IMG/VR virus record: IMGVR_UViG_3300009285_000003
Location: 1 to 64,000 of that record
Reading direction: 5' to 3' (one strand)
DNA length: 64,000 bases
Source of the DNA: a virus
A program made the position numbers and the translations under genes. Every line of letters begins with the position of its first letter. Position 1 is the stretch's first letter. Below are positions 3,667 to 63,800 of this stretch, piece after piece. The notes beneath the pieces are model-generated. The model searched no databases. It saw only the letters and a program-made list of their open reading frames with translations, and was not told where the DNA came from.

Positions 3667-3758
3667 TTGATATTGGTGGGTGGATTTTCCTGTCTGTAGT
3701 TCTGGTTTGTGCTTTATTCCTGTTAGTACTCAACATCTGGGAGGCTACACATCAGTGA
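3663..3758 (+). CDS. small hydrophobic (membrane) peptide, 31 aa
   Basis: GTG start. The sequence is VIDIGGWIFLSVVLVCALFLLVLNIWEATHQ. GTGA overlaps occur at both ends. Confidence 0.35.
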   Translation: MIDIGGWIFLSVVLVCALFLLVLNIWEATHQ

Positions 3759-16686: not shown

Positions 16687-17056
16687 TGCTCTCTAACCAC
16701 TCCAGGAAATCTCCAAGGGATTTAAACGTACAATCTGCCAGAGTATAGAACTGACTCTCCACCCAACCAATTACCACTACCCAAGCACAAGTACTAAGGG
16801 CATATCCATATTCGACATGTCTTCCTCCCCTACTTTTAGTATTTGGCTCTTCTGTAAAGAATACACATACATCTGCTTCTCGTATACGCTCCATATCTTC
16901 CTGGGCACAATCTTCCCATTTAGATCGATAGTCAGAATCTGGAATGGCTGTCCACAACCAACTACTAACTACCTCATGTCCTAAAGACCTAAGAGTTTCA
17001 GCGTGCCTTCGTAGTTCCCTTCTACGTTGAAAGTCAGCCCCTAGATAAATCTTCAT
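16664..17056 (-). CDS. nucleoside 2-deoxyribosyltransferase-like protein
   Basis: ORF track, 130 aa. MKIYLGADF...ADVCVFF...GGRHVEYGYAL resembles the family. The call is tentative. Confidence 0.45.
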   Translation of the reverse strand: MKIYLGADFQRRRELRRHAETLRSLGHEVVSSWLWTAIPDSDYRSKWEDCAQEDMERIREADVCVFFTEEPNTKSRGGRHVEYGYALSTCAWVVVIGWVESQFYTLADCTFKSLGDFLEWLESNDCPFSN

Positions 17057-17223
17057 GTATTAGGGTACTCCTCGTAGTGCTCATCATCATAGTAATCAAG
17101 GACTTCATCATAGGTAAGCCCCCGTACCTCTATTAAGTCCAGGCAGTGCCCACAAACATATACCTCATTTCCGATGTTGGCAACTGCCGGAGCCGGGCAA
17201 AATTGGCAATCCCTTTCATTCAT
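17053..17223 (-). CDS. small zinc-ribbon protein, 56 aa
   Basis: MNERDCQFCPAP...VCGHCLD. Its stop overlaps the downstream ATG (ATGA). Confidence 0.5.
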   Translation of the reverse strand: MNERDCQFCPAPAVANIGNEVYVCGHCLDLIEVRGLTYDEVLDYYDDEHYEEYPNT

Positions 17224-17372
17224 ACTTGCAGTCCTCCGTTGAGTGTGGTAAGATCGTCATGAGGGATGCTGACCGTTGGTGCCGACGATACCTCACAGTC
17301 GGGAAAGGAGACTCTTTTTAGAGTCTCTTTTTCATCTCCCTCCCCATCCTCCCGAACCAACTGGACAGCCAT
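17220..17372 (-). CDS. possible 50-aa ORF carrying element copy 3 in frame
   Basis: MAVQLVREDGEGDEKETLKRVSFPDCEVSSAPTVSIPHDDLTTLNGGLQV. Its stop overlaps the ATG of 17053-17223 (ATGA). The RBS is weak. Confidence 0.3.
   Translation of the reverse strand: MAVQLVREDGEGDEKETLKRVSFPDCEVSSAPTVSIPHDDLTTLNGGLQV
17261..17298 (-). repeat. dispersed element copy 3
   Basis: The plus strand reads GAGGGATGCTGACC at 17261-17274. The minus-strand flank CTGTGAGGTATCGTCGGCACCAAC matches copies 4, 5 and 6. Confidence 0.8.
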
Positions 17373-17465: not shown

Positions 17466-17714
17466 TTAATCTTCCTTTCCATATGCCTCAGGATGGATTA
17501 GGTATCCTAGTATCTTAGCTGCTTCTTCCGCACTATTTCTATCTCTGAAGTAAGCTAAAGGGATTCCTGCCCATCTGCCATCTACTACCTTGTTAAGGTA
17601 CAGAGCAAAACTCACTCGGGAGGGAAGCCTGCTGATGTTGATAGAAAATACATCCTTTCCATCTTGCTCCAGTCCCCAGCCTGCATACTCAAACTTACCC
17701 TCTGTGTAAATCAT
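17466..17714 (-). CDS. hypothetical protein
   Basis: ORF track, 82 aa. Confidence 0.6.
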   Translation of the reverse strand: MIYTEGKFEYAGWGLEQDGKDVFSINISRLPSRVSFALYLNKVVDGRWAGIPLAYFRDRNSAEEAAKILGYLIHPEAYGKED

Positions 17715-18055
17715 TCTGCCGCCTCTGCACTCCTGAATTCTCCCCTATGCCACTTAAGCTCACTCTGATGTATCTCATACAACAGATTCACCACTTCCCA
17801 AAGTTTGTCTACCTCCTCTGCTACTGCTTCAATGGACTTGCCGATGCCCTCTGCTGTTAGAACTACTGGCTGTAGTATCGGAGTAGCTTCTGGAATATCT
17901 GGGTCATATCCAGTACCTTCACAAAAAGCACACTCAGCATAGTGGTTCATGTCTGGGTCATATGGATGAGTTACCAAATACTCTCCAGTACCACCGCACC
18001 CTTCACACCTCCAACTCATGCCTGTACCATCAAATCCGTATACACCTTTATCCAT
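17711..18055 (-). CDS. protein with DnaJ-type CxxCxGxG zinc finger
   Basis: ORF track, 114 aa. It contains CEGCGGTG and CAFCEGTG. Confidence 0.6.
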   Translation of the reverse strand: MDKGVYGFDGTGMSWRCEGCGGTGEYLVTHPYDPDMNHYAECAFCEGTGYDPDIPEATPILQPVVLTAEGIGKSIEAVAEEVDKLWEVVNLLYEIHQSELKWHRGEFRSAEAAE

Positions 18056-24561: not shown

Positions 24562-24755
24562 GAGCTAGTTTCCTCCACTCGGTGTATTAGGGTAGCCCTA
24601 TAGTTATCCAGAGCTTTTTCCCAGTTCTCTGGAATGGTACCATCAAAGAACCACTCAAAAAATTGAGTTACCTCATCAACTATTCTTAACACCTCTGTTA
24701 GGTTTTTGTACTCCTCATCGTTCTCCGTCAGGATGACATTACCAACTCTCTTCAC
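24558..24755 (-). CDS. hypothetical protein
   Basis: ORF track, 65 aa. Confidence 0.6.
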   Translation of the reverse strand: MKRVGNVILTENDEEYKNLTEVLRIVDEVTQFFEWFFDGTIPENWEKALDNYRATLIHRVEETSS

Positions 24756-27700
24756 TTCAAATCACTCCAATACTTACCCACATGGACATTGACTTTCATT
24801 TCCAACCCCTCCGGTCTAATCTTTGGCTCTGTCATATGTTTCACCTGCTGAGGAATCCACTTCTCCACTACTCCTTCTGGAACCTCATACACTAGCTCAT
24901 CGTGAATCTGGAGTAGCAGGTGAGCCCCATATTCTTCTGCTATGGGGTCTAATTCTATCATGGCTGCTTTGGTTATGTCTGCATTTGAGTTATGTGTTAC
25001 CACCCCACCTACTGCAAATTGACCATATTCTGCGTCTAGTACATCATACATAGGAACAGCCTCTCCCATTTCACTAATTGATCTTACCCGCTGTGCTCTA
25101 CCGTAAAGGGTCCCCCATTCCTTCTTCGGAATAACCCTGTATAACTTTTCCTGTTTCAATGGATTTAGGAACCCTATCCTTTGAGCAAAGGTCCCCACAT
25201 CTCGCTTTGCAACTTGAACTACGGTCCTATCCTTTTCATAGACTCTAATTCGACTGAAGATTCCAAACAATAGAAGCGCCTCTTGAACATCTTGTGCCCA
25301 AATAAGCTTTTTAGACCCCTTGCCAAAGGTTAAAATGGGGCCATCTTGAGAAACTGTACCATCTCCATCAAACAACCCTCTCAAGTAGGAAGAAAGAAGA
25401 GTACTACTACCCCATACAAAATCTGGGATACGCTGTTTAATTCCTTCTTCCTTCAAAAGCTTAGCTAAGGTTGCTCTGGATAAGGTTAAAGAAAGAAGCC
25501 ACTTTCCGGCGGACGGCTTTTGAACTGTACGAATGGTTAGGTGTCCGAGTCGAGCAAGCCCTTCCAATAGACCAGGAAGTATTTCGGCCTCGTGCTCAGC
25601 AACCAGCCAGGTCAACCCAGTTTTCAAAACACTACCATCGGATGCCAGCCTCCCAAGTAGCTCTCCTAGCTTCTCCTCCTCTATATCATTTAGATCTACA
25701 CTTATGCCATTGTGTGCTCTGGGCTTTTGGGACACAGGTAACGTTCTACTAGAACTCCAGAAGGGTGGGGTACTCGTCAATCGGACTCGATCCTGTCCCT
25801 TGATCTCGATAGGTTTCTTCCAAGACTGGACTCCTTTATTGTTCAAAATCAAGAACCTGTGATCGGAAGAACATTGGATAACCTGTCCTCCATATAGCTC
25901 CACCCTTATTAGGGACTTCAATCCACTTGAAACCACTGAAGCTTTGGCCCAGCGTTCTCCATCCCAAATAGTAACTTGTTCTCCAACTAGAAAGGCTATT
26001 GGAATACAGCCTGACTCCTTAGTAAGGATTCTAGAAGATCCTTCTACACAGCCTTGGATAGGCATGTTCACCGCCTCACGAAGGGCCTTCTGATGAAGTG
26101 CTGTAGCCCCCGGAAGACGGAGCGCAGGAAACTGCCTGACTCTTCCGGCTGGTGGTAGGGTCCGCATAAATCCATTCTGTAGTGCGAACTGTCGTTCGTC
26201 TGCCATATGCCTATGGAGTACGGGGTACCCTTCTCGGTGTAGTCTAAGGATTGCTCCTGCCTCTTCCATAGAAAGCCCCGTCTTTTCACTGATTGTATAC
26301 TCCTCTGCTCCATAAGGGATACCAAAGTTAATCGCCTTGGCGAGTCGCTTACTGATTCCTAGTTTTTGCATGGTGTCTTCATGGATGCTCCAACCAGGAG
26401 TTTTGTATCCTTCTACCAGTGCTGGATCTCCAGAGGCATGAGCCATGATACGCATTTCAATCTGATTGTAGTCTGCTCCAACAAAGACATATCCCTCTCT
26501 AACTTGATACATCAACCTGAACATCTCAGGCACCTGTTGTAAATTGGGTCCAGTACAGGACAGCCTACCTGTTTCAGTATTGCACTGATTAAAGGTGGCG
26601 TGAATTACACCTTCCTCACTACTAAGGAAGGTGGATAGCTGCTTCTGCAACCCTCGCTCCATAAGCAAAACTGTAATAGCTGGGTCCAGGTGCTCCAGTT
26701 GCTTCAGTACAAATTCATCTATTGCTGGTCTACCCGTACCAGTAGACTTCAGTACTGGATACCCTTTCTTGTTGTAAAGATAATCTGACATTTGGTCGTA
26801 GGACCTCCGGTCGAAGTCCATCCCCAAAGATACCAGCACCCCCCCCAAATTGTCAAGTTGAGCTTGGACTACTCCTCGCAGCGCCTCTCTTCTAGTTGGA
26901 TCTACTTCAATACCTCTGTCTTTCATCTTCATGAGAATGGGTAGAAGGGGCATCTCAATGTCTGTATAAAGAGGAGACCACATCTCCCAGGATTCAAGCT
27001 GTGGCTTGAAGATGTTGAACAGTCTGAGTGTGTGGTCTACGTCCCCACATGACTTAAGAGCTAGTTGCTCTAGAGGTAGCTGAGTAACATCTACCTTATC
27101 TGTACCAAACAAGTCCTTAAAGGTAAGGTGTCTCTCTCCCAAAACAATCTTTGTTAGTTCTTCCAGGGATTGTCCTTTATAACTAAGCAACCAGGACATC
27201 ACGCGAGTGTCATGAGAGTAGGCATTGTAGTTCCCTATTGCACGAAGGTCGAAGGGGGCGTTGTGCCATATGACCTGGTAGCGCCCGGATAACTCTGCTA
27301 TCAGGCCCCTCACCTGGAACCTATCATTATCAGTCCTCAGTGGGATGTAGAGCCCCTTCTTCTCTCTGCCTGATATAGACAATCCCAGTAAAGTTATATC
27401 TTCCAGCCCAACAGTTTCTGTATCCAGAGCTATTGGCTCCCCCACATCAGGCAATACTCGTCTGAGAGAAGAGGAGTTCCACTCCAGATCCTCAATCTCT
27501 TCAGTGTAGTACTCTTGCTTCTGTCGCACTAATGCAACAGTACCTCTTAGTACTGATTGCTCTGGCTTCTTTCGTTTACCTTTCTTCTCACAGTCATCTG
27601 GCCAAATGTAGGCCCTTGCTCCTTCTGGAACAGAGCCAAAGTGTTCGATGTCTGTGAAGTAGACCTCTCCTTCTCCTCCATATTGAATGGAGTCTGCAAT

Positions 27701-27772
27701 AGGAAACGCCTTTTGTACTTCCTCAGTAAGTTGAAAACAATCGGGCTCATCTATGAGGACTACTACTTTCAC
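24752..27772 (-). CDS. polA: family A DNA polymerase (3'-5' exonuclease plus polymerase domains) interrupted by an intein
   Basis: ORF track, 1006 aa. Motifs seen are Exo I IALDTETVGL, motif A GADYNQIEMRI, motif B RLAKAINFGIPYG and motif C LLQIHDELVYEV. Confidence 0.9.
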   Translation of the reverse strand: MKVVVLIDEPDCFQLTEEVQKAFPIADSIQYGGEGEVYFTDIEHFGSVPEGARAYIWPDDCEKKGKRKKPEQSVLRGTVALVRQKQEYYTEEIEDLEWNSSSLRRVLPDVGEPIALDTETVGLEDITLLGLSISGREKKGLYIPLRTDNDRFQVRGLIAELSGRYQVIWHNAPFDLRAIGNYNAYSHDTRVMSWLLSYKGQSLEELTKIVLGERHLTFKDLFGTDKVDVTQLPLEQLALKSCGDVDHTLRLFNIFKPQLESWEMWSPLYTDIEMPLLPILMKMKDRGIEVDPTRREALRGVVQAQLDNLGGVLVSLGMDFDRRSYDQMSDYLYNKKGYPVLKSTGTGRPAIDEFVLKQLEHLDPAITVLLMERGLQKQLSTFLSSEEGVIHATFNQCNTETGRLSCTGPNLQQVPEMFRLMYQVREGYVFVGADYNQIEMRIMAHASGDPALVEGYKTPGWSIHEDTMQKLGISKRLAKAINFGIPYGAEEYTISEKTGLSMEEAGAILRLHREGYPVLHRHMADERQFALQNGFMRTLPPAGRVRQFPALRLPGATALHQKALREAVNMPIQGCVEGSSRILTKESGCIPIAFLVGEQVTIWDGERWAKASVVSSGLKSLIRVELYGGQVIQCSSDHRFLILNNKGVQSWKKPIEIKGQDRVRLTSTPPFWSSSRTLPVSQKPRAHNGISVDLNDIEEEKLGELLGRLASDGSVLKTGLTWLVAEHEAEILPGLLEGLARLGHLTIRTVQKPSAGKWLLSLTLSRATLAKLLKEEGIKQRIPDFVWGSSTLLSSYLRGLFDGDGTVSQDGPILTFGKGSKKLIWAQDVQEALLLFGIFSRIRVYEKDRTVVQVAKRDVGTFAQRIGFLNPLKQEKLYRVIPKKEWGTLYGRAQRVRSISEMGEAVPMYDVLDAEYGQFAVGGVVTHNSNADITKAAMIELDPIAEEYGAHLLLQIHDELVYEVPEGVVEKWIPQQVKHMTEPKIRPEGLEMKVNVHVGKYWSDLK
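24989..26050 (-). mobile_element. intein with LAGLIDADG homing endonuclease, inserted in ...NMPIQG|SNADITK
   Basis: aa 575-928. It starts CVEGSSRILT, has block B SSDHRFLIL and dodecapeptides LGELLGRLASDGSV and SYLRGLFDGDGTVS, and ends GGVVTHN followed by +1 Ser. Confidence 0.85.
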
Positions 27773-30673: not shown

Positions 30674-33388
30674 TTAGCCACAACCCGTGGCTTCTCCGCA
30701 AGTGCCACAGACAAAACACGACCCAGAACGAGACATAATACCCCCACAGTTAGGACAGAGCATACCATGGGTAGTGGGAAGAGGGATGCTGACCGAAGGT
30801 GCCTCGTCCCTCACAGCCATGCCCCCCGTTGCCTTCCATATTCTGGTTGCCCACTCATCAAGTGCTTTTGTATCATCAACATACCCACCCATTGTCCACT
30901 CCGGTTTGAGAACATTGACGTTAGTGGAAACTGGCCAAGGTTCTCCAGGCTTGGGGATGTTCCACAGTGGGGCAAATAGAAACCTCTTCTCCATCCACTG
31001 GAAAATGTAATCCACTACTGACGTACAACTGGGGATGTTCTTATCTCCAGTAAACCCAGCAGGCTCAAACCTCTGTCCCTTGAGCTTCCGAGCAATATCG
31101 GCAAGGGGCACTCCATATTGTAGGGCCAGACTAACCATCACTGCAAAGCTGTCCATCAGCCCACCGAGTGTGCTGCCCTCCTTGGATATGGTAATAAATA
31201 GCTCTCCAGGTGTGCCATCAGGATAGAGCCCCACTGTAAAATATCCATCCTGACCCCCAATCTCGAACTTATGAAGGATGGCATCTCTGGTAGTTGGTAG
31301 CTTCTTACGAGTGCTACTGGGTACTGCAAGATATGAGGCTACTAGCTTATCCATTTCCTCTATCTCATCAGGGGTGTTCTCTTGTGGTCCTATGTACCTA
31401 GAGTCATCTGGTGAATCTACTCCCACAAAATCCCCTTCTATTAAGGTGCTCATTATCTGAGTAGTCTTGCTGTTATCTCTGTACACACTAATACTCTTCA
31501 ACCCTAGTTCCCACGCCCTAATGAACAACTCCCTTATCTGCTGAGGAGTAGTCTCTTCAGGCACATTGACTGTCTTAGAGATACCACCACTGAGATGAGG
31601 TTGTACTGCTGCCATCATAAGAAGGTGGTCTTCTATTGATACACGATTGCTGCCATCAGGGTTACCCATAGCAGTAGTAAATAGTGGGTTATAAAACCTT
31701 TCATCATAGGATAGAGAATTAGGCCAACATTCTGGAATGGTGGTCATACTGCCTCCACCTACTAAAGTCTTGACCTTATTAGGTGCATAGATAGGCTCAA
31801 TACCAGTACTATCACAATCCATCATGAAGCTAATAGTACCAGTAGGAGCAAGAAGTGTTAGTTGAGTGTTACGAATGAAACTTAGGTCTACAGCAAAGGG
31901 GCACACCTCAAAGGCTTCATTCCAGATACTACTTCTTGTGTAGTCCTCTAAGGAATCAAGGTGACGTTCCCAAACTCCTCTGGTGCCCCATTCTTCTAGG
32001 CCCTCGGCTGCCCCAAGCTTCACCCCCAGTTCAATACTAGTTGCATACGCCTGAGCATTCATAAGGGCTGTAATAGAAGCGGCTAAGTCTCTACCTTCTT
32101 CTGAACCATATGGCATCCCAGCCATGAACAACATTGTAGCAAGGTTTGTGTACCCCAGTCCCAACTCTCGATACCTATGAGCATTTTGTGCTATCTCCTC
32201 AGTAGGATAAGAGGACATATCCACCAGAATATCCATAGCCGTAATTAGAATATGGACAGTGTGCTTGAATCCCTCAATATCAAACTGCCCGTTCTTCCAG
32301 TACTTAGCCAAGTTAATTGAAGCTAGATTACAGGCAGTTTTATCCAGACTTAAGAACTCGCTGCAAGGATTTGATGCACGTATCTCTCCAGCCTTAGGGC
32401 GAGTGTGCATCCTGTTGATGGTGTCCTTAAACTGAATACCAGGATCACCACATTCCCAGGCTGCTTTTGCTATGAGGTTGAGCAAATTGGAAGCATTGTC
32501 TACAACCACCCCATCCCCCCATTTCTCAGAGGATGTTTGCCCTTCCTCTCTGTAAGTTAATCCCCATTCTCCACCTGCTATAGCGGCCTCCATGAAGTCA
32601 TCCCCCACCCTCACAGAGTTATTAGCATTCTGAAACTGGACAGAACTCCATGCTTCACCATTCAATCCGAGGTCATACCCTTCCCTTGCCAGCGCTTTCG
32701 CCTTTCTCTCTTCTTTGACTTTGCATTGGATGAACTCTCTGAGGTCTGGGTGGTCGTCATCAAGGATAACCATCTTCGCCGCACGCCGAGTCTTCCCACC
32801 CGACTTGACCGCACCAGCAATAGAGTCTGCTCCCCGCATAAAGGACACTGGCCCACTGGCTGTACCGCTGGTCGAAAGTGGCTCCATGCTTCCCCGCAAC
32901 TTAGACAGGTTAACTCCTGCGCCACTGCCTCCCTTGAAAATAAGGCCCTCATTACGATACCACTCCAGGATTGAATTGATGTTGTCTTCTACTGAGAGAA
33001 TGAAGCAAGCAGAACATTGGGGCTTTTCCTCCACTCCTACATTGAACCAGACTGGGCTATTAAAAGCTGCATGTTGGTTGAGAAGGAGGTATTCTAGCTC
33101 ATCAATGAAAATGAGTCCGTTATCCACGTCTTCATCTGTGTCAAAGTAGCGTAAGTCAAAATCTGCTATAGTGTCAGCTACTCTATGTACTAAATCCTCA
33201 ACATCAGTCTCCTCCCTTCTGAAGTACTTTGACGCAACGATATTAACTGCATCCTGGCTCCATGAAGCAGGTGCTCTAACTCCTTCCAACTTGAATCCAC
33301 TACCGGGAATCTCTGCTGTCCTTGTGACCCATCCAATAGATTCTGTAGGGTCCCAGTTTGTTGTAGTATAGTGACGGTTAAACTTCAT
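30674..33388 (-). CDS. nrdJ: ribonucleotide reductase, class II-like (single large chain with C-terminal zinc ribbon)
   Basis: ORF track, 904 aa. The active-site loop is SNPCSEF. The C-terminus reads CPNCGG...CFVCGTCG. No separate small-subunit gene is in the window. Confidence 0.75.
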   Translation of the reverse strand: MKFNRHYTTTNWDPTESIGWVTRTAEIPGSGFKLEGVRAPASWSQDAVNIVASKYFRREETDVEDLVHRVADTIADFDLRYFDTDEDVDNGLIFIDELEYLLLNQHAAFNSPVWFNVGVEEKPQCSACFILSVEDNINSILEWYRNEGLIFKGGSGAGVNLSKLRGSMEPLSTSGTASGPVSFMRGADSIAGAVKSGGKTRRAAKMVILDDDHPDLREFIQCKVKEERKAKALAREGYDLGLNGEAWSSVQFQNANNSVRVGDDFMEAAIAGGEWGLTYREEGQTSSEKWGDGVVVDNASNLLNLIAKAAWECGDPGIQFKDTINRMHTRPKAGEIRASNPCSEFLSLDKTACNLASINLAKYWKNGQFDIEGFKHTVHILITAMDILVDMSSYPTEEIAQNAHRYRELGLGYTNLATMLFMAGMPYGSEEGRDLAASITALMNAQAYATSIELGVKLGAAEGLEEWGTRGVWERHLDSLEDYTRSSIWNEAFEVCPFAVDLSFIRNTQLTLLAPTGTISFMMDCDSTGIEPIYAPNKVKTLVGGGSMTTIPECWPNSLSYDERFYNPLFTTAMGNPDGSNRVSIEDHLLMMAAVQPHLSGGISKTVNVPEETTPQQIRELFIRAWELGLKSISVYRDNSKTTQIMSTLIEGDFVGVDSPDDSRYIGPQENTPDEIEEMDKLVASYLAVPSSTRKKLPTTRDAILHKFEIGGQDGYFTVGLYPDGTPGELFITISKEGSTLGGLMDSFAVMVSLALQYGVPLADIARKLKGQRFEPAGFTGDKNIPSCTSVVDYIFQWMEKRFLFAPLWNIPKPGEPWPVSTNVNVLKPEWTMGGYVDDTKALDEWATRIWKATGGMAVRDEAPSVSIPLPTTHGMLCPNCGGIMSRSGSCFVCGTCGEATGCG
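30779..30827 (-). repeat. dispersed element copy 4 (inside the RNR C-terminal linker)
   Basis: The plus strand reads GAGGGATGCTGACC at 30781-30794. It is translated as ...GMAVRDEAPSVSIPLPT... Confidence 0.8.
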
Positions 33389-35668: not shown

Positions 35669-35722
35669 TTTAGCTACTCCGCCAACGCCTTCGTCCTACT
35701 TCTTCTTTATCTATAAGTATGG

Positions 35723-35774
35723 TTACACCTTTTACTATGCTTGCTAGCAAGATAGTATATTCGTGTAATCTGTT
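35723..35774 (-). promoter_or_regulatory. 52-nt dyad-symmetric element, copy A (centre GCTTGCTAGCAAG)
   Basis: About 44 of 52 positions are identical to the reverse complement of 42199-42250. It lies in a 215-nt gap within the minus-strand block, upstream of 35453-35668. Confidence 0.4.
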
Positions 35775-41716: not shown

Positions 41717-41738
41717 CCCCCTAGCTCCCCAGCGCTTG

Positions 41739-41770
41739 AACCCCTAGGCATCAATCGCTTAGGGGTTTGT
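41739..41770 (+). terminator. hairpin AACCCCTA-N13-TAGGGGTT followed by TGT (weak terminator candidate)
   Basis: It lies just after the G+C-rich cassette. The T-tract is short. Confidence 0.3.
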
Positions 41771-41910
41771 CCCACTGCTTACCAGGGGGGCTGACCAACC
41801 ATTCAATCAATTCTTCCAGGAGCACACCCCCCTAGCTCATTTGTCTGTTTGTTCAATCAGCCTCCTGTGAGCTAGCTCGCGCAATGGCTCGTGCGCCTAT
41901 GCGCCTACAC

Positions 41911-42000
41911 CGTAGCCTATAGCACGGCGCACCACCCGAGTCTGTAGCACCCGGCCCCCCCTGTAGGCTACCCCCCTATAGCTGTAGGGAGCCCTCACTT
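41911..42000. repeat. iteron-like CTGTAG-containing repeats at ~20-nt spacing
   Basis: CGTAGCCTATAGCACGG, then CTGTAGCACCCGGCCCCCC (41942), CTGTAGGCTACCCCCC (41961) and CTGTAGGGAGCCC (41982). Confidence 0.3.
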
Positions 42001-42039
42001 TTATTGTTGGGGTGTTATTGTACACCTACTCCAATTTTT

Positions 42040-42198
42040 CACTCAAATATGCCTCTAATTGTATATACAATTCTTTTCCCATCTAGGTGTATACAGGTAT
42101 ATACAAAATAGATAAGTACTTAAGGTAAAGTTACGTTGTTTTGAGGTGTGTACACCAATGAACAATATTTGTTATACAAGACTTGAATCTGGATGTAT
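42040..42198. promoter_or_regulatory. A+T-rich region with TGTATACA-type palindromes (candidate operator/origin region)
   Basis: AATTGTATATACAATT is a perfect 16-bp palindrome at 42057-42072. GTGTATACAGGTATATAC follows. Further right is the 9-bp inverted repeat TGTTATACA-N15-TGTATAACA. Confidence 0.3.
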
Positions 42199-42250
42199 AA
42201 CAGATTACACGAATATAGGGGCTTGCTAGCAAGCAGTATAAAAGGTGTAA
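42199..42250 (+). promoter_or_regulatory. 52-nt dyad-symmetric element, copy B (centre GCTTGCTAGCAAGC)
   Basis: It matches the reverse complement of 35723-35774. It lies about 70 nt upstream of the HNH gene start. Confidence 0.4.
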
Positions 42251-42322
42251 TCTCTTTAAGAACTACGTAGCAGTGTGTTATACTTAGAATATGGGTATTA
42301 CACAGTTGGAAAGGAGCTTCAA

Positions 42323-42928
42323 ATGGAGGCCAAAAAGTCTTGGATGAGTCAGACAAGGGGGTGGAGACCGATTTGGGTTTCCTATGCCGCCGCTCGAAAG
42401 CTGCAGATAGTAGTATGTGATCTATGTGGGGAGGATCAGAAAAAGGAATGTAATAACTGCTTTGATATTCTTCCTCTAGACCTATTCAATAAGGCTGTAG
42501 GTAGAAGTGGAGAGGTTTATTACGGAAGGAACTGTAGAAAGTGTATTTATAGTCTTAACCCAGGTAAGGCAAAAGACTCCAGTAAGAGGTGGAGAATGGC
42601 AAAAAAGGAGCTTGATCCTAGCCACTTCAGGAACACCACACAATTATATAGAGACAGGAATACCAGGTACATTGTGGAGTACCTCTTAAATCATCCGTGT
42701 GCTAGGTGTGGAGAGTCAGACGTTGAAGTACTTGAGTTTGATCATTTAGACCCCACTGAGAAGGAATATACCATAGCCCAATTGGTAGGGGGGGGAATGG
42801 GTCTGATAAAACTCCAAAAGGAGATGGCTAAATGCCAGGTTCTATGTTCTAATTGTCATAGGAAGAAGACCATTCAGGATAGAGGAGGCACCACTAGGAG
42901 CAAACTGCTAAATTCCCTTAACAATTAA
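42323..42928 (+). CDS. free-standing HNH endonuclease
   Basis: The ORF track gives 42275-42928. ATG 42323 is preceded by GGAAAGGAG. It contains CARCGESDVEVLEFDHLDP...CSNCHRKKT. Confidence 0.75.
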   Translation: MEAKKSWMSQTRGWRPIWVSYAAARKLQIVVCDLCGEDQKKECNNCFDILPLDLFNKAVGRSGEVYYGRNCRKCIYSLNPGKAKDSSKRWRMAKKELDPSHFRNTTQLYRDRNTRYIVEYLLNHPCARCGESDVEVLEFDHLDPTEKEYTIAQLVGGGMGLIKLQKEMAKCQVLCSNCHRKKTIQDRGGTTRSKLLNSLNN

Positions 42929-45557: not shown

Positions 45558-45758
45558 ATGGCAGAAATTGGAGGGCAGATGAATAGTGCTAATGCAGCCT
45601 GCACAGATGAGGCGCATTGCATGGAGAAGCAGGTGGGACATAGTTACCTTGATCCCTGGACCAGGAAGTTCCTGCAGAAGTTCGAGCACTACAAGCCTCA
45701 TGGCAGTAAGTATCTTGACCCCAGGATGAATAGGCAGGCTGAGGTGAATGATAAGTAA
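45558..45758 (+). CDS. hypothetical protein
   Basis: ORF track, 66 aa. TAAAGGAGAAGGAAG precedes ATG. Confidence 0.55.
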   Translation: MAEIGGQMNSANAACTDEAHCMEKQVGHSYLDPWTRKFLQKFEHYKPHGSKYLDPRMNRQAEVNDK

Positions 45759-46009
45759 TGGACGAGGAGTTTGACGACTCGGAGTCGGTCACTCCTAAGC
45801 TAACTCTTACTTTTGAGACTGGTTTGGTAGTGAGTGACTTCAACACCCTGGTCAACGAGGCCGGTATCTATGAGGGGCTTGCTGTGCAGCTACTGGAGAT
45901 TGCTTATCGCTACAGGGCAGAGAATCAGAAGCTCAACCAGGATAGGAGCTTCTTTGACCGCGAGATGCGGGCTCGTGATACACTTGAGAGAGAAATCAAG
46001 AAGGAGTAA
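45758..46009 (+). CDS. hypothetical protein
   Basis: ORF track, 83 aa. It has a TAATG overlap. Confidence 0.6.
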   Translation: MDEEFDDSESVTPKLTLTFETGLVVSDFNTLVNEAGIYEGLAVQLLEIAYRYRAENQKLNQDRSFFDREMRARDTLEREIKKE

Positions 46010-46014
46010 CAGCT

Positions 46015-46215
46015 ATGGCTGGTGAAGAGACTGGTTACAGAAGTCAGGATACGGGGGATGTTCTTGCCAAGGTTCGCACGATTCTTTCGGGCAAGCCAGT
46101 GCGACAGAGCGCCATTGAGAACTCGGCTGGTGACAAGGGCTTTGAGAAGGCTGGGGTTAATAAGGGCGTGGGTAATCATCACAGTGGCAGTGCTAAGGTG
46201 ACAAAGGTTCGCTAG
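46015..46215 (+). CDS. hypothetical protein
   Basis: ORF track, 66 aa. Confidence 0.55.
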   Translation: MAGEETGYRSQDTGDVLAKVRTILSGKPVRQSAIENSAGDKGFEKAGVNKGVGNHHSGSAKVTKVR

Positions 46216-46383
46216 ATGGCTGGTAAGTCAAAGGCCCATCCAGGGTTCCAAGCTGTGCAGAGGAAAATAGCTGCTCAGCAAGGAGTTCCGGCTGAAAATG
46301 CTGGAGCTATTTTGGCTGCCTCAACACGTGGGGCTAGTCCAGCAGCTAAGGCCAAGAACCCAAGGCTAAAAAGAGTTAAGTAA
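46216..46383 (+). CDS. small basic protein, 55 aa
   Basis: ATG directly follows the TAG. The sequence is MAGKSKAHPGFQAVQRKIAAQQGVPAENAGAILAASTRGASPAAKAKNPRLKRVK. Confidence 0.5.
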   Translation: MAGKSKAHPGFQAVQRKIAAQQGVPAENAGAILAASTRGASPAAKAKNPRLKRVK

Positions 46384-46404
46384 CTCCCTGCGACCTGGGA
46401 AAGT

Positions 46405-46430
46405 GGCGCTCTGGTAGCGCCGCTTTTCTA
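46405..46430 (+). terminator. rho-independent terminator
   Basis: GGCGCT-CTGGT-AGCGCC is followed by GCTTTTCTATTT. It lies 22 nt after the stop at 46383. Confidence 0.6.
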
Positions 46431-46498
46431 TTTATAGCAAGTTTAGTGAGTTTACCCCAGTTTATGCTCCGAGGCTAATTTCTTCATAAGTGAGGACT

Positions 46499-46552
46499 GA
46501 GGGGCTGTGAGTGATCAGAGGCACTCAACGGTCAGCATCCCTCTTTTGCTCC
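46499..46552 (+). repeat. dispersed element copy 5 (intergenic, upstream of the packaging genes)
   Basis: GGTCAGCATCCCTC lies at 46530-46543. The full match is GAGGGGCTGTGAGTGATCAGAGGCACTCAACGGTCAGCATCCCTCTTTTGCTCC. Confidence 0.8.
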
Positions 46553-46569
46553 AATGATAAACTTATCTT

Positions 46570-46809
46570 ATGAAGACAGCAACCTTTTACTGCCAGGAGT
46601 GTTCTACTTCCCGTCCTATAACCAGCAATCCGATGCACACTCTTCTAACAGACGAAGCAACAGAGGCTCGGAGACTGGGGGGGAGACCTTTATCTGTTCG
46701 CTGTCCTGAATGCAGCATCACCACACAAATAGTCCTTAGCGAAGCTACAATCTTCCAGCTACGAAAGGAGTGGAAATGGAAGCAGAAGAATTCCTCCCTC
46801 CCGAACTAG
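46570..46809 (+). CDS. zinc-ribbon protein
   Basis: ORF track, 79 aa. It contains CQEC...CPEC. Confidence 0.55.
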   Translation: MKTATFYCQECSTSRPITSNPMHTLLTDEATEARRLGGRPLSVRCPECSITTQIVLSEATIFQLRKEWKWKQKNSSLPN

Positions 46810-47504
46810 CTGAAAATACCATAAACGACGAAACAGTCACAGACAAATTAGGCAATGTGCGACCTCGCTGCAAAGGCTTCGCCCGTAAAACTAACCTCCG
46901 CTGTCGTGGTTGGGTCTGGGGCCAAACCGACTTCTGCCGCTTTCACGGCGGTACGCTTGTAGAGAGTAAAGCTGAAGCAGAGCTAATTCCTACTCCCTCT
47001 CGTCCAGATACAAACTTCAAAGAGTTCTTCACAGTCCGATTTAAGAAGTATATGGGCGTAATGAAGACTCATCGTCGCTATGAAGTAGATGAGCAGATAG
47101 CTTCCCTACGAGCAGCAGGAGACTGGTACGAAGAAGTGCTATTTGCTATAGGTGCTCCTTCTGTCAAAGATATTGAGAACTATTACTCTATCAAAGAGCG
47201 TGAGGTAGCTCTTATAGAGCGTATGACAAATATTGAATCTAAGAGGGCTTTTGCTATTACCCAACAGACAATGAGAGAACTCCTATTAGCCTTTGTAGGA
47301 GTAGTGAAGAAGAACATCAAACGTAGAGATGAGCAAATAGCCCTTCTACAGGATGCTAGGGCGTTATTCTCTGCTGACCGCCTTCTTATGTCTCCCATGC
47401 CAGAGGACCCCATAGAAGCCCAGTTTCAGATGATTAACAACGAAGCAGATAACATCTTGGACTACTCCACACCTGCGCAAATGCCGGAGATCATTGAGGA
47501 ATGA
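46776..47504 (+). CDS. putative terminase small subunit
   Basis: The ORF track gives 46770-47504. ATG 46776 follows GAAAGGAG. The N-terminus reads CKGFARKTNLRCRGWVWGQTDFCRFHGG. It is directly upstream of, and coupled to, terL. The call is mainly positional. Confidence 0.4.
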   Translation: MEAEEFLPPELAENTINDETVTDKLGNVRPRCKGFARKTNLRCRGWVWGQTDFCRFHGGTLVESKAEAELIPTPSRPDTNFKEFFTVRFKKYMGVMKTHRRYEVDEQIASLRAAGDWYEEVLFAIGAPSVKDIENYYSIKEREVALIERMTNIESKRAFAITQQTMRELLLAFVGVVKKNIKRRDEQIALLQDARALFSADRLLMSPMPEDPIEAQFQMINNEADNILDYSTPAQMPEIIEE

Positions 47505-49177
47505 TAGAACCTAAAACCAAGTACCCCCGTCCGGTAGCAGACCTGGCGGATGAGATATTTGGTCGTGCTATCGAAGAAACCTCTTTTGCACAGGCTTTGG
47601 ACCACAAAAGGTTTCAACCCCCTACTAAAGAGGAGAAGCTTAGCTTTTGCCGCTTTATGGGGTACGTCCCTCAAGAGGAGTGGGAGGCTTTGGGGAGACC
47701 AACATTTCCTCATCCTCTCCACAAGGGTCAGATGGATATGTTGGAGTGTGACGACCGCTTCATCATAGTCGGTGGCGGACGCCGTGGAGGGAAGACCCAT
47801 GGTGTTGCACTAATTGTCCTGTGTATTTTGCATCTACGCCCATACTCGACCATCTACAACGTTGGTCCTACTAAACTGCTCTTCCAGAAGGTTTACTACA
47901 AATGCTTAGAACTTCTGGATTCTAAGGGCATCAGATACAAGTCCCGCAAAGATCCCTACTGGGAAATAGAGCTTGAGAACCACTCCCTTCTGACTTCCAG
48001 GACTCTGGAGGAGCCTGGTCAGATGGTAGGAGACGCCCTAGACTTTGTGATTATTGACGAGGCCGCACAGGGCAACCGATCAGTCTGGGACCGTCGCCTT
48101 ATCCCATCCCTAGCCGACAAGCGGGGTGGGGGCATACTCATTGGTTCCTACGAAGGCAATAACTGGTATACGGAAATGGCTCAGGAAGTAGAGATTAAAC
48201 GTGCCTCTGGACAGGAAATACCCTGGGAATCTTCCTGGAGTCACTTTGAGTTTGCCTCCTGGGACAACGTGGCTATCTTCCCACTAGGATTTGAGGATCC
48301 GGTATTTCAGGCTGCTCTTCACGACGCTCTTGACCCCAATGATTTCTGGGAACAGTTCGCGTCCAGGCCTAAAGCAAATTACAACTTGGTATTTCCAGAG
48401 TTTGAGCGCTTTGTTCACACTACTACTAGAATAGGGTTCAACAAAGATCTACCTGTCTATATTGGTATCGACCCTGCAGGCTCAGACGCCTATGCGGTCA
48501 TAGCCTTCCAGGTAATTAAGAACTGTCCTTGTTGGTCCTGGTACGGAATTCCAGATACACCAGAACAGGAGCATGTGTGGGTCATAGACGAATTCTACAA
48601 GCGTAATGCTATTACAGAGATGGTCATAGACGATATAAAAATGCGACCTTGGTTCCCCAACCTTTCCAAACTTGGCTATGGAATTGTGGACGTAACTGAG
48701 TGGCAGGGTAGCGCCTACCGTTGGGGCAGGTCTGGAGTCAAGATCTACGTGGTCCAGAAGACTACCAAAGACTTCATCAAGAATTCGCTGGACTACTATC
48801 GTACCTGGCTACGAGACCCTATTCGTTATAAGTTTGAAATCAATCGACTATTGGTGGCTTTTGCCGAAAAGCAGGGTATGGAGGTTGACGCTATTCCAGT
48901 AGAGGAATACCGCATTATGCGCTCTCAAGTAGAGCAAGAGGTTCCTAAGGACATTCTGGTACGATGTAATAGGGTACACATCGACCCAGTAATGTGTCCT
49001 AATACCGTTTATGAACATGTGAACTATCAGTATGCAGAGGGAAAGAGAGGCGGAATTCTCAACGCTCCTGAGAAGCCAATGAATGCTTTTAACCACGCAA
49101 TTGACGCCACGGTATACTATTTCTGGCAGGCACAGAAATACGGTAAGCGTCCTCCATCAAAAAGGTATATAGAGTAG
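47501..49177 (+). CDS. terL: terminase large subunit
   Basis: ORF track, 558 aa. Walker A is GGGRRGGKTH and Walker B is DFVIIDEAAQ. It has an ATGA overlap with the upstream gene. Confidence 0.8.
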   Translation: MIEPKTKYPRPVADLADEIFGRAIEETSFAQALDHKRFQPPTKEEKLSFCRFMGYVPQEEWEALGRPTFPHPLHKGQMDMLECDDRFIIVGGGRRGGKTHGVALIVLCILHLRPYSTIYNVGPTKLLFQKVYYKCLELLDSKGIRYKSRKDPYWEIELENHSLLTSRTLEEPGQMVGDALDFVIIDEAAQGNRSVWDRRLIPSLADKRGGGILIGSYEGNNWYTEMAQEVEIKRASGQEIPWESSWSHFEFASWDNVAIFPLGFEDPVFQAALHDALDPNDFWEQFASRPKANYNLVFPEFERFVHTTTRIGFNKDLPVYIGIDPAGSDAYAVIAFQVIKNCPCWSWYGIPDTPEQEHVWVIDEFYKRNAITEMVIDDIKMRPWFPNLSKLGYGIVDVTEWQGSAYRWGRSGVKIYVVQKTTKDFIKNSLDYYRTWLRDPIRYKFEINRLLVAFAEKQGMEVDAIPVEEYRIMRSQVEQEVPKDILVRCNRVHIDPVMCPNTVYEHVNYQYAEGKRGGILNAPEKPMNAFNHAIDATVYYFWQAQKYGKRPPSKRYIE

Positions 49178-53782: not shown

Positions 53783-54841
53783 ATGAACCAGTACTACGAT
53801 CCATACGCTGAGAATGACCCCAACTACTGGGGGCCTGACTCTGGAGATCAGATGTCAGCATATGATCCTAACCAGAACTTCAATTATGGTCAGGATATGT
53901 TAGACTATGGGTTGCAGTATGGAGATTCTTATCAGCAAGACTATGGGTATGACCCTTACTCCTCTAGTGGATACAACCCCTATGCTAGTTCTGGGTATGA
54001 CCCATATTCGACCTCTGGCTATGATCCGTATAGCACTGAAGGAGGGTATACTGATCAGTATGACCCCTATGCTCAGGATATTGGGTATGATCCTTATAGT
54101 GACCAGCAAGACTACTACGATGACTTCTCTGATATTGGGTACACTTTCCACAATGATCCCAGTTTGATACCTGGCTTGCAAACTCAGATACAGGACTGGG
54201 AAGAGCAAGTTTCTAGTAATCCTTCTGACCAGACTAATCAGAGGTACTTACAAGCCTCTAGGCAGCATCTTCAGCAACTGCAGAATCCTACATATCAGGA
54301 CGATGGCTACAATCCTTATGGCGAAGACATGGGATATGATACCTACGGGTATAACCAGTTTGACCAGAACCAATGGGATCCAGGCTACTACAATAACCAG
54401 GACCCATACGGAGACTATGGAGAAGGGGACTATGGGCAAACCCCTGAGGAAGCTCCTCCTTCTACAGTTGAGAAGTTTGATTATGGGAACACAGACATCA
54501 ATAACTACAAGACTCCTGATTTTGTACCCCCCAAGAGCACTGCTCCTACTCAGGAGGAAACCTTAGCACAGGCCAAGTCTCAAACACTTCCTAGCATGGC
54601 AGCACCACCTAAACCTTCCTGGCTAGAACAGATTGAGAGTGGAGAAGCATACAAACCCTACCATTCTTTTGGTAATAACCCTACTCCCTACCTCTCTCAG
54701 GAGCAGTACAACACCATGGACCCATCTGAATACGAGGGCTATATGGCCCTTATTCCTCAGTGGCAACAGCAGGACTTTGCACTCAATATGCAGAAGTCAT
54801 GGGCTCCTGGGAGACAACGTAGATCAGCGTTTATGAGTTAA
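53783..54841 (+). CDS. Tyr/Asp/Pro/Gln-rich low-complexity protein
   Basis: ORF track, 352 aa. ATG directly follows the upstream TAG. Confidence 0.6.
   Translation: MNQYYDPYAENDPNYWGPDSGDQMSAYDPNQNFNYGQDMLDYGLQYGDSYQQDYGYDPYSSSGYNPYASSGYDPYSTSGYDPYSTEGGYTDQYDPYAQDIGYDPYSDQQDYYDDFSDIGYTFHNDPSLIPGLQTQIQDWEEQVSSNPSDQTNQRYLQASRQHLQQLQNPTYQDDGYNPYGEDMGYDTYGYNQFDQNQWDPGYYNNQDPYGDYGEGDYGQTPEEAPPSTVEKFDYGNTDINNYKTPDFVPPKSTAPTQEETLAQAKSQTLPSMAAPPKPSWLEQIESGEAYKPYHSFGNNPTPYLSQEQYNTMDPSEYEGYMALIPQWQQQDFALNMQKSWAPGRQRRSAFMS
53940..54110 (+). repeat. degenerate in-frame tandem repeats encoding (S)SGY(D/N)PY(S/A)
   Basis: YGYDPYSSSGYNPYASSGYDPYSTSGYDPYSTEGGYTDQYDPYAQDIGYDPYS. Confidence 0.6.
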
Positions 54842-60800: not shown

Positions 60801-63800
60801 AAGAGCGATTGGGTGATAGGTCAGATGCAGTACTGGAATCTAGACTTGAGACTCTAAACGACCTAAACGAAAGGTTAGATTCTGTCATATCTGACTTGTC
60901 TGATTTAACCCCTGAAACAGTAATGAGGACACCAGTCTCAGAACCGCTATATGTTGGGCCGGTTGCCAAAAGTTGGAAAGTGGAGAAAGACGGACAGATT
61001 ATCCAAGGTGGGTTCCCCACAAGACAAGAAGCTGTAGATTCTGTACGAGACCGGGGAAGTGGTTTTACAGTAAGGCCGGAGGAGTGGACTTCAGCACCCG
61101 AGCCTGCTCCGGCAGAAATTCCTAAAGTAGCAGTGGGGCCAGAGGTATCAGATGCAGCATACGGCTTAGAAGTACTCGCCCCAGACCCCCGTAGTCCCAA
61201 TCGAGGATGGAGAGTACAACAAAGAAACTCAGGAGAAGTAGCAGACGGATTTGCCAATGAGCAAGAAGCTCTTCAGTATATTGAGAATGTTCGAGGAACT
61301 GAGTCAGCAGTTTTCCCAGAAATTCCTCCTGTGGAGGTTATTGGTCCTCCGCCGAAACTCCCTGCTTCCAGAGAGGCAGCAGTGGGGCCAGAGGTATCAG
61401 ATGCAGCAACGGTCAGCATCCCTCCTCAAGAAGTACCTATTACCTGGCCTACAGAACCAGGTACCTCCCTCCTTGGTACTAAGTTAGCTAAAGTAGTCAG
61501 AACACGCCGTTCAGACTTACTCACTGCTATCAAAAAGATACAGAATACCATTTCTGATGAGAATATTACTAACTCTAAGATGTTCTTTGATGCTCCCTTA
61601 GAGCAGCTAAAAGTACCAACACTAGATGCTCCATTTGGAGAGAGGTTAGCGTACTTCATTCGACTGAAGCACGATAAAGAATTAGCCTCAGGACTGGAAC
61701 AAGCTGGAGACATACTAACCTTTAATAGGTTAAAGACTGTAGATGGTAAAGTAGATGAGTTCATGCAGGAGATGCACTCTGCTATAGAGCAGGTTACAAA
61801 ACAGCCTATCAGTGATCCAAAGTTAAAAGGAGAACTAAAAGCCTATGGAAATCGGCTAGCTGACATGCAAAATAAGTTAACCGATGCCGAACGTAACCAA
61901 CTCAGTACTATGAAACGAAAGGCGTTCAAGAACTCTCTTGAAAATGTATCTAGAGCTTACACTAACTACAGTGACGGATATGCCCTAGATATGGCCATGT
62001 CTAAGGTGTTCCCCTGGTGGCAGTATGCTTCTAGAGCGCCCTTGCGAACTGTGGAACTCTATACTAGAACTCCCTTCTTACTCAGAGGAACCCTGAAATT
62101 CTTGGAAACCGCAGAAGAAGGTGGGTATGTCCCAGTTCCAGGTAACTTGGGCTGGGCCTTTGCCCCTGCACAAGGTACACAGTTCTCCAGACCTTTCCAA
62201 ACTTTATCTAACCTTGTAAATCGTGGAATAGGATGGCCTAAGTATGGTGGAGTTTTAGGCCAGGCAGAACAGGTTGTAAATGCCTTCCAAGCAAGTGGGG
62301 CGTATTCTCCCATGATGAGTAACCTCATTAGTCTTGGGGCCGCAGCAAGTGATAGAGACTTAAAGTTGGGTATGGACTCATATTTCGGGTCTACAGCACT
62401 ACAGATGTTGGGAGATGGAGCTTCTGCCTTAACGAACCGAATACCAAGATTTGGGATTGCAAAACCCGCTGCAGATTTGTACAACGATGTGCTGGAGGTA
62501 TTAGGGGACCCATACGGCGAAATGAAAATACTCATGTATTACTCTCGCCGTGGGTACTCACCTTCTACAGTTGAAGCGGCCCTAACTCTTAATATGAATA
62601 TTATCGCTAGAGAAGATGGCTCTGGACGAGTAGATCCTAAGATACTGAGACAACAAGCAGAAGACTACAACCGAGAAGTGAACTTCTTTTTCGATATGTT
62701 CGGGAATGTGAAGTCAACTGACCCTGGTATCAAGGAGTTTAAGAAGACCCTTCAGGGGTATTTAGTCAAAGCCATTATGACTGATCCAACTCTTTACAAG
62801 GCATGGAAAGCTGGAAATATAAACCCCTTTACCATGAACCCTAAAGACATTCTAAAGATGTTACCTCCTGCTCTCAGACGTAGGGTAGAGGATCTACCCT
62901 ATGGGTATATTTACGATAATGCGAATTACTCCTCTGTGTTCAATGCTCCAAATACCAGAGAGCGACAACAGAACATGAATGCTTACTTCTACTGGGAACA
63001 GTTAGAACGAGACAGGATGCTTATAGAGCAATCATCTGATGATGCTGCTTTGGCTGCTGGGATAAAGTCTGCCGGAGGACAGGGGGGAATTGACCACCAA
63101 ACCTGGATGGATCAACGTAAGAGTCGTATGGAACAGTTCCGTGGTGCACAGGATGCCCAAAGAGAACGACTTGGAGTACCAGCAACCTCTGCGGAATGGG
63201 ACCGTTATAACGAGCAAAATGGTGGAACTAGAGAGGAGTTACACCCTATTCGTCGAGCTATAGATGACTATTACTCCATAGCTCCAAATGCAGTAACCAA
63301 GCAATATTACACCCCAGATGGTCAGGTAGACTGGGCAGCTATTCAAGATGACAGAGATGCACTAATAAACTCACTTCCAGAAGCTGAGGCCCAGGCAGTA
63401 CTTGATGAGATTCAGAAATACATGACACCTACAGAGAAAGATTTCATTAGGGCTATCAGACAATTTCAGGACTTCAACGAGTTACCCAGATATGAAATTC
63501 CCAAGGGGTTTCCCTTAAAAGAAGGAAGGGTAGAAGAATATCTGAATGATAGGGAGACCTATAGCAAAATTACCAAAAACTGGAAAGAGCATAATGGGGA
63601 ATGGAACAAGCTGTCCAAGGATGATCAAAGAGATCTTGTTGGTGGGTCAATCTTCTATGATAAATGGGGTAATGAAGTATCAGCAGATCAAGAGTGGGTT
63701 AAGGAAGTAAAGGTAAGAGGACTTCTCTTTAAGTGGAGGTCCTTTGATCCAATAACTGGAAACTGGAAGAACCTGCTTAATAACCCTCCAGATAGCTCAA

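Follow-up and report, generated by a model that had tools for sequence, protein, structure and literature searches.

A Six-Copy Asymmetric Element in an Uncultured Phage Is Probably a Recognition Site Controlling Gene Expression Rather Than a Folded RNA Terminator

In the genome of an uncultured phage, a short repeated sequence is located between a strong terminator and the genes of the packaging operon. This raises the question of how such a sequence might act: as a folded RNA signal heading the operon, or as a stretch of nucleotides that is recognized as such. We addressed this question in a window of 64 kb (the whole stretch of DNA that was analyzed), which belongs to a 66.8-kb phage genome assembled from groundwater metagenomes (ENA ERZ909573 / SRR2177362). 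Judging from its sequence and conservation, the element is probably a recognition or binding site that controls gene expression and not a folded RNA terminator.

Genome setting and distribution of the six copies

The genes are arranged in one block on each strand (Table 1), and the 2.8 kb outside the window, which encode the major capsid protein and its neighbors, bridge the window end to the window start. The glycosyltransferase 226-3558(+) presents an intein splicing domain and an HNH_3 domain, and the family A DNA polymerase 24752-27772(-) presents LAGLIDADG_3 and intein splicing domains; relatives with an 84% identical polymerase possess an intein-less protein of 652 aa. A 24-nt periodic coding repeat (GYDPY/GYNPY-type) was observed at 53944-54031, near the start of a 352-aa protein encoded downstream of an 814-aa protein. 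Finally, the 558-nt non-coding region 41717-42274, upstream of an HNH endonuclease gene (42275-42928), contains C-rich repeats (CCCCCCTAG-like) and AT-rich stretches and constitutes a candidate origin or genome terminus.

No DNA similarity to this region was detected in the GenBank phage collection, where the best TerL matches were ~23-26% identical. Two informative relatives were reached via protein clusters. The first, L132 (NCBI GCA_040960095.1), presents 82% nucleotide identity over 3.4 kb and covers copy 5 of the element; the second, L130 (ENA ERZ27254811), is a strain variant with 90% identity that covers copy 1 in a 1.1-kb comparison. We also examined 30 kb of one and 14.5 kb of another more distant relative, whose TerL proteins are 40-44% identical; the contigs of these distant relatives start ~2.9 kb upstream of TerL, at mutually equivalent positions. 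The near-identical contigs (L001-L003, L125, L126, L128, L131, L133 and L134, and the protein fragment P0134) presented zero substitutions near the copies and were uninformative, and a homologue of the giant virion protein (P0132) stops short of the region of copy 6.

Two of the near-identical contigs, L002 and L003, are otherwise >99.9% identical and carry ~32 substitutions within a strain-variable patch at 45755-46098, where L002 also carries a 117-nt insertion near position 45760. This suggests a recombination patch among co-occurring strains. Another contig, the 1.2-kb scaffold L131, consists of phage DNA 99.7% identical to window 17401-16667, which includes copy 3, joined at window position ~17401 to a bacterial-type S1-domain gene on the opposite strand (L131 positions 1-520). 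This scaffold is probably an assembly chimera and was set aside as a divergent-promoter context for copy 3; alternatively, the junction, ~100 nt upstream of copy 3, may be a genuine recombination junction.

Table 1. Coordinates of the gene blocks, the copies of the element and the features around copy 5 (window positions).
Feature	Position	Strand	Position of GGTCAGCATCCCTC	Context
Plus-strand gene block	~40264 through window end, on to 14068	+		Small genes, terminator, packaging genes, probable portal, 3033-aa M23-peptidase virion protein, capsid, intein-containing glycosyltransferase, endolysin
Minus-strand gene block	40249 down to 14071	-		Class II ribonucleotide reductase, intein-containing family A DNA polymerase, helicase, Sak4-like, Cas4/RecE-like exonuclease, ERCC4 nuclease
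Copy 1	4124-4167	-	4126	Antisense within ORF 3755-4762(+), in a hydrophilic loop
Copy 2	13931-13975	+	13960	In frame in the 101-aa ORF 13763-14068; ~95 nt before the convergent junction of the gene blocks
Copy 3	17259-17304	-	17261	Intergenic; 37 nt before the 56-aa zinc-ribbon gene 17053-17223
Copy 4	30779-30822	-	30781	Class II ribonucleotide reductase (30674-33388), in frame; linker preceding the Cys-rich C-terminal tail
Terminator	46396-46430	+		Intrinsic, closing the upstream small-gene operon; dG -22.7 kcal/mol, z -4.5, 0/200 shuffles as good
Candidate sigma70-like promoter	46451-46489	+		TTTACC-N19-TAATTT, then CTTCATAA; predicted from the L132 comparison and sequence reading
Copy 5	46499-46546	+	46530-46543	Intergenic
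Zinc-ribbon ORF	46570-46809	+		79 aa, CxxC...CxxC; directly downstream of copy 5
TerL	47501-49177	+		In the packaging genes
Half copy (left half)	61133-61160	+		Without the 14-mer; in a 31-nt duplicate
Copy 6	61382-61426	+	61411	3033-aa M23-peptidase virion protein, in frame; Pro-rich linker between domains (~aa 2190)

The claim that the locus holds one of six copies of a repeat was confirmed: the 14-mer GGTCAGCATCCCTC is present and exact in all six, against ~0.47 matches expected by chance even when up to two mismatches are allowed. It is the sole multi-copy 14-mer within the window, and the 2.8 kb of the genome outside the window hold no seventh copy. A profile built from the six copies recovered these copies and one left-half copy, and nothing else. 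The core of the element is ~32 nt long and consists of GGTATCAGAGGYACCAAC followed by GGTCAGCATCCCTC, of which the last 14 nt are invariant. Its alignment presents a gradient of conservation, from a variable G-rich or CTGTGAG part through the semi-conserved GGTATCAGAGGYACCAAC to the invariant 14-mer, and the flanks of the latter are ~60-70% alike among copies. One-base indels separate the left and right halves, such that the spacing varies by +/-1 (the distance from GGTATC to the 14-mer is 11, 12, 12, 11, 13 and 12 nt in the six copies). The 14-mer is asymmetric and non-palindromic, and its copies are dispersed over the 66.8 kb, three on the plus and three on the minus strand. Five of the six are co-oriented with genes, a bias that taken alone is not significant (two-sided p ~0.22, n=6). 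Some copies share further sequence: copies 1 and 5 have 24 nt in common at the 3' side, and CTGTGAG is common to copies 3, 4 and 5.

A second repeat family was observed in the same genome. It consists of a 53-nt sequence (AACAGATTACACGAATATA..CTTGCTAGCAAGCA..TAAAAGGTGTAA) found twice, at 42199-42251(+) and 35722-35774(-), which faces outward around a 6.4-kb block of small genes and contains the 12-bp palindrome CTTGCTAGCAAG. This pair looks like early promoter/operator regions.

Only copies 3 and 5 are intergenic. Each is located behind a hairpin (z -3.0 and -4.5, respectively) and ahead of a small zinc-ribbon gene that opens a module, and the two zinc-ribbon proteins are mutually unrelated; copy 3 lies 10 nt after its hairpin (17296-17345). 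The remaining four copies are intragenic and, because they are located in linker-like protein segments, they are likely to be tolerated. Copies 2, 4 and 6 are read in the same frame, in acidic or Pro-rich segments, and copy 1 is open in the antisense direction. This shared frame is weak evidence (p ~0.1) and becomes weaker once it is considered that the TGA in CTGTGAG closes one frame. A peptide repeat (xVSxxPxVSIP) was ruled out, as two copies are non-coding and synonymous positions are identical in all copies. Indeed, all four third-codon positions of GTC AGC ATC CCT are the same throughout, and the constraint therefore bears on nucleotides, not on the peptide. Within the giant virion-protein gene, an exact 31-nt direct duplication (61129-61159 = 61378-61408, 249 nt apart) encodes AVGPEVSDAA twice, and the invariant 14-mer follows the second copy only.

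Such a distribution might suggest a selfish or relic mini-insertion of ~45 nt, spread by recombination and merely tolerated, with copy 5 and its zinc-ribbon gene forming one cassette. The intragenic copies leave the host frame open in linker-like segments and the three sense copies share a frame, the pattern of similarity among copies is mosaic, half a copy is exactly duplicated, and copy 5 is missing together with the zinc-ribbon gene in the distant relatives; in-frame palindromic elements of Rickettsia offer a precedent (PMC10969869). However, even decay would be expected of a neutral relic, and here 14 nt are invariant across six copies that are old and otherwise diverged, and the relatives have kept 32-47 nt unchanged. 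Little weight attaches to the shared frame, as noted above, and we found no consistent terminal inverted repeats, target duplications, transposase or recombinase: ends of the form GAGGG...CCCTC are found only in copy 5, with partial versions at other positions in copies 2 and 4, and flanking duplications are absent. We regard this origin as improbable.

Conservation of copy 5 and the proposed hairpin

The position and context described for copy 5 by the sequence-only reading are accurate: it starts ~69-70 nt past the strong terminator and ends 18 nt before the ATG at 46570. Between the terminator and copy 5, TTTACC (46451-46456) and CTAATTTCTTCATAA (46475-46489) are identical in L132 and the spacer between them has diverged (19 nt, and 18 nt in L132). 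This is the probable signature of a weak sigma70-type promoter, with matches of 4/6 and 3/6 to the consensus and a spacer of 19 nt; a consensus scan flagged no sigma70-type site between the terminator and 46570. If this promoter is real, copy 5 would be located at about +12 to +59 of the late-operon leader. The 79-aa zinc-ribbon ORF downstream of it is without a Shine-Dalgarno sequence, overlaps the next gene by 34 nt, is uncalled in the gene tables of L001-L003 and L007, the four loci covering it, and is missing from the protein collection. It is nevertheless probably a real gene, because the protein is conserved in the 82% identical L132.

The layout of the locus is the same in L132, where a small basic-protein gene is followed by a terminator, the element, the zinc-ribbon ORF, a 247-aa gene and TerL. 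The 47 nt from 46500 to 46546 are identical and the remaining spacer has diverged; where the terminator is located upstream, L132 has another hairpin with a T-run instead. Among the runs of identity in the whole L132 comparison, that of 47 nt is tied for second longest and no other long run falls in non-coding DNA, which indicates that copy 5 is under purifying selection outside coding sequence. At its edges, G46499 is replaced by T and TTTT by TTTA. In L130, the 32-nt core of copy 1 (4125-4156, GGTATCAGAGGTACCACGGTCAGCATCCCTC) is without substitution, a run of identity that is only the sixth or seventh longest in the 1.1-kb comparison, and the surrounding ~220 nt are ~16% different; the upstream G-run has four changes, and the T run after CCCTC is gone through a 6-nt deletion. 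Based on these two comparisons, the selected unit appears to be the 32-nt sequence, extended on its 5' side in copy 5, without the U-tract or the G-rich arm. Moreover, recognition at the DNA level is favored because copy 1 is conserved even though it is antisense to its host gene.

Neither the element nor any analogous multi-copy word was detected in the distant relatives, over the 30 kb of one and the 14.5 kb of another that were analyzed, and the segment containing copy 5 and the zinc-ribbon ORF is missing between the terminator and a gene of 246 to 252 aa. The joint absence of the element and of the adjacent zinc-ribbon gene is the pattern expected of a site that co-evolves with its own factor.

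We then considered the proposed fold. The minimum free energy structure of 46499-46552 pairs GAGGGGCUG with CAGC-AU-CCCUC, exactly as had been named, and UUUU does follow the 3' arm. This hairpin (dG -19.3, z -1.0) is no more stable than chance, as 27/200 shuffles fold as well, and the 75-nt folds of the six copies are likewise within the range of shuffled sequences (z -0.3 to -1.3). RNAalifold run on the six copies yielded -0.67 kcal/mol, a trivial 4-bp GAGG:CCUC helix and 0 covarying pairs; adding the two orthologues yielded -1.15 kcal/mol, again with 0 covarying pairs. The helix proposed earlier pairs 66.7% of alignment cells without a compensatory change, which equals the same helix slid by three columns. 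The copies share no common fold.

The G-rich pieces reported upstream of copies 1, 2 and 4 are present, but they do not serve as a sign of structure conservation, given that the 3' arm is invariant and its 5' partner either varies or is missing. The constancy of the 14-mer therefore cannot be due to pairing, and the pattern is the reverse of that of a helix under selection. There is a mild enrichment in complementarity between the 60 nt upstream and the invariant arm (mean -12.7 kcal/mol versus -10.05 for the sense-strand background, p ~0.012). This signal is carried by copies 2, 4 and 5, the other three being ordinary, and copies 4 and 5 are not independent in this test because GGCTGTGAG is common to both. 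Nor did the U-tract hold as a conserved property: of the six copies, 1 and 5 are followed by TTTT and 2, 3, 4 and 6 are not, and the tract becomes TTTA in L132 and is lost with the deletion in copy 1 of L130. The search of Rfam yielded zero matches at the gathering threshold in the window and only chance-level matches in 46380-46600 (E 0.7 or higher, far below gathering scores). The hairpin and U-run are thus a local property of copy 5, at most a copy-specific attenuator, and not a conserved feature. The suggestion of a cis-acting control signal heading the packaging operon fared better than the structural argument made for it, as the position between terminator and late genes and the apparent purifying selection make such a signal plausible.

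A transcribed RNA element could also act through other means, as an antiterminator target, a processing site or a single-stranded RNA-binding site, in addition to a leader hairpin or attenuator. Five of the six copies have sense orientation within their transcripts, copy 5 would be in a 5' leader provided that the promoter ahead of it exists, L132 keeps both of its hairpin arms (8/9 pairs), and the enrichment in upstream complementarity points the same way. We nonetheless consider an RNA element unlikely: besides the results on folding, covariation, slid controls, arms, U-tract and Rfam, copy 1 is conserved despite being antisense to its gene, and cleavage or termination within the reductase and giant genes would be harmful.

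Candidate functions of the element

We searched for the element and for a cognate factor more widely. The 18-mer had no match in IMG/VR, and the bare 14-mer had single chance matches there, with the exception of one pentapeptide-repeat gene with three chance matches. JGI metagenomes yielded the same phage only, plus one chance match inside an unrelated gene, GTDB genomes yielded one chance match in a CinA-like gene, and a literature search for the 14-mer returned nothing. Essentially all ORFs were compared to Pfam and PHROGs, which revealed no RNA polymerase, sigma factor or HTH repressor and no integrase, recombinase, transposase, reverse transcriptase or partition genes; many of the small ORFs had no assignment. 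One 114-aa protein, 17711-18055(-), with two DnaJ-type CxxCxGxG zinc-finger motifs, presented a weak PHROG match to a Q-like antiterminator (E 7.6e-4) that is probably due to its cysteine motifs only.

Several specific candidates were rejected. A tRNA, a T-arm fragment and an attP site were discarded, since the search found no tRNA and the motif forms no T-arm. Comparison by eye with the sigma54, sigma70, ECF and IHF consensus sequences revealed misfits in both spacing and sequence. An N4-type hairpin promoter, with a stem of 6-7 bp and a 3-nt loop (GGTATC-AGA-GGTACC), is confined to copies 1 and 2. The giant protein does not qualify as a virion RNA polymerase: the M23 domain is the only one recognized in it, its PDB matches are M23 peptidases only and it is without DxDxD, a motif that was absent from 8/8 large unassigned proteins tested. 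Finally, an invertible segment or shufflon site was dismissed, as the search revealed no recombinase and essential genes would be scrambled if the copies recombined.

Our first choice, to which we assign a probability of roughly one in three (0.32), is that the element is a lineage-specific asymmetric cis element, i.e., an operator-type DNA site for a putative trans-acting factor that gates transcription. Copy 5 would lie in the leader of the packaging/structural operon, downstream of the terminator and of the probable weak sigma70-type promoter, and a factor bound there would gate the entry of RNA polymerase into the late genes, as an operator or a roadblock. The remaining copies would act alike on other modules of transcription, either at them or within them: behind the reductase, ahead of the module that begins at 17223, within the giant virion gene and where the late block ends. 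We infer all three steps of this scheme, namely the binding of a factor, recognition at the DNA rather than the RNA level and an effect on transcription. The factor is putative because none of the ORFs was recognized as encoding a repressor, an HTH protein, a sigma factor or an RNA polymerase. The reading as an operator is weakened by the fact that four of the six copies are intragenic, copy 6 being 2.5 kb into an essential-looking gene and copy 2 only 95 nt from the end of its block.

A close rival to the operator in the late-operon leader is a phage-specific promoter. In this case, the element would drive middle and late transcription from a start at or just after the invariant block, and would be read by the host RNA polymerase redirected by a putative phage factor or by a host alternative sigma factor. 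Copies 3 and 5 present the succession of terminator, element and first gene, and copy 4 is ~120 nt upstream of the next gene. Phage promoter families typically combine a sharply invariant core with an upstream part that is less conserved, sigma-type promoters tolerate a two-block layout whose spacing varies by +/-1, T7-group promoters are found in coding sequence too, and the consensus scan left the interval between terminator and 46570 free of any flagged sigma70-type site. On the other hand, T7-type promoters are intolerant of indels between their halves, and neither a sigma factor nor an RNA polymerase of the single-subunit or two-barrel type was found among the scanned ORFs; by inspection, the element matches none of the sigma70, sigma54 or ECF consensus sequences known to us. 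A separate conserved -35/-10-like pair is already present upstream of copy 5, and there is nothing sensible to be driven by copy 1, which is antisense, copy 2, which faces a convergent gene, or copy 6, which is 2.5 kb into a gene and without an internal start downstream. We view the promoter as possible, and rank it second to the operator-type site.

The third reading in our ranking is a site of DNA metabolism: a target for a nickase or endonuclease (e.g., the free-standing HNH 42275-42928), a recombination hotspot or a landmark for replication or packaging. The irregular dispersal of the three plus-strand and three minus-strand copies across coding and non-coding DNA and a conservation that is independent of gene orientation would fit such a role, and the gene products of the phage include HNH endonucleases, an ERCC4-type nuclease, a Cas4/RecE-like exonuclease and a Sak4-like annealing protein. 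The consensus sequences of known nick sites resemble the element in being short, exact and specific to a lineage (PMC3517423); every nicked phage that has been described, however, has its sites on one strand only (PMC3517423), against three on each strand here. Furthermore, the contig ends of independent assemblies are never located at the copies, no nuclease is linked to the site and both intergenic copies are found exactly at the boundaries of transcription units. A role in DNA metabolism thus appears doubtful, and it is followed in our ranking by the transcribed RNA element and then by the selfish insertion.

We gave the lowest weight, that of a long shot, to a nucleotide-constrained signal of a new kind that is embedded in coding sequence and read in trans. 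In one version, the antisense copy 1, carried on the late mRNA, may pair with the five sense copies, located on early, middle and late transcripts, in an RNA-RNA network, with at least 14 nt of perfect pairing and 24 nt with copy 5, and may coordinate the early-to-late switch. In another version, an operator system may be served by the small zinc-ribbon protein encoded just downstream of the site.

Whichever reading is correct, the element is the clearest handle on the organization of gene expression in this phage, because the lineage is nearly without annotated regulators. It marks probable module boundaries, and its 32-nt core could be used as bait to fish the cognate factor, with the zinc-ribbon proteins encoded next to the element as candidates. 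It also represents a regulatory-type DNA word that is kept letter-perfect in protein-coding linkers, including those of the reductase and of the 3033-aa virion protein. For annotation, these results call for caution, as a hairpin and U-run in one copy of a repeat need not be the conserved feature of the family.

Comparison with known systems

Copy 5 alone resembles an intrinsic terminator or leader attenuator, in that UUUU follows a GC-rich stem within what is probably a leader; the family as a whole does not have this property, the stability of the stem does not exceed chance and the relatives have not kept the U-run. The 23-bp promoters of the T7 group and their relatives are highly conserved, multi-copy and co-oriented with genes; they often follow a terminator directly and in some cases are located within coding sequence. 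The element is similarly a conserved multi-copy sequence of 20-45 nt that is co-oriented with genes, but it differs from these promoters in the lack of a phage RNA polymerase gene, in its variable internal spacing and in three copies without a gene to drive.

Localized nick sites share with the element an exact, lineage-specific consensus that is repeated a handful of times in coding and non-coding DNA (PMC3517423). In T5-like, phiKMV-like and tf/LUZ24-like phages, all nick sites of a phage are on one strand (PMC3517423) and the known consensus is 7-20 nt long, whereas the element has three copies per strand and is known from assembled contigs. The palindromic elements or intragenic MITEs of Rickettsia are also found in frame in unrelated genes, at protein-compatible positions, as well as between genes (PMC10969869). 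They are ~100-150 bp long, palindromic and present in tens of copies; the element is 32-47 nt long, has no consistent inverted ends and possesses a sharply invariant core under apparent selection.

A parallel in logic is provided by the operators and stoperators of Cluster A mycobacteriophages such as L5 and Bxb1. These phages carry 20-30 asymmetric stoperator sites, oriented with transcription and for the most part not associated with promoters (PMC6550527). Like them, the element is short and asymmetric, has an invariant core, is dispersed over the genome and is lineage-specific; it is also found near and away from promoters, with some copies in genes (PMC6550527, PMC9283540). The stoperators are predominantly oriented with transcription; of the copies here, 5/6 are, which is not significant with six sites. 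The differences are that there are six copies here rather than 20-30, that four of the six are in ORFs rather than mostly in short intergenic gaps, and that the temperate Cluster A phages possess an identified repressor together with an integrase or parABS, whereas Pfam and PHROGs revealed none of these here. On this comparison, membership among the stoperators fails on copy number, absent repressor and life style, and the likeness appears to be one of logic. As a class, the element probably belongs with the lineage-specific regulatory words of phages.
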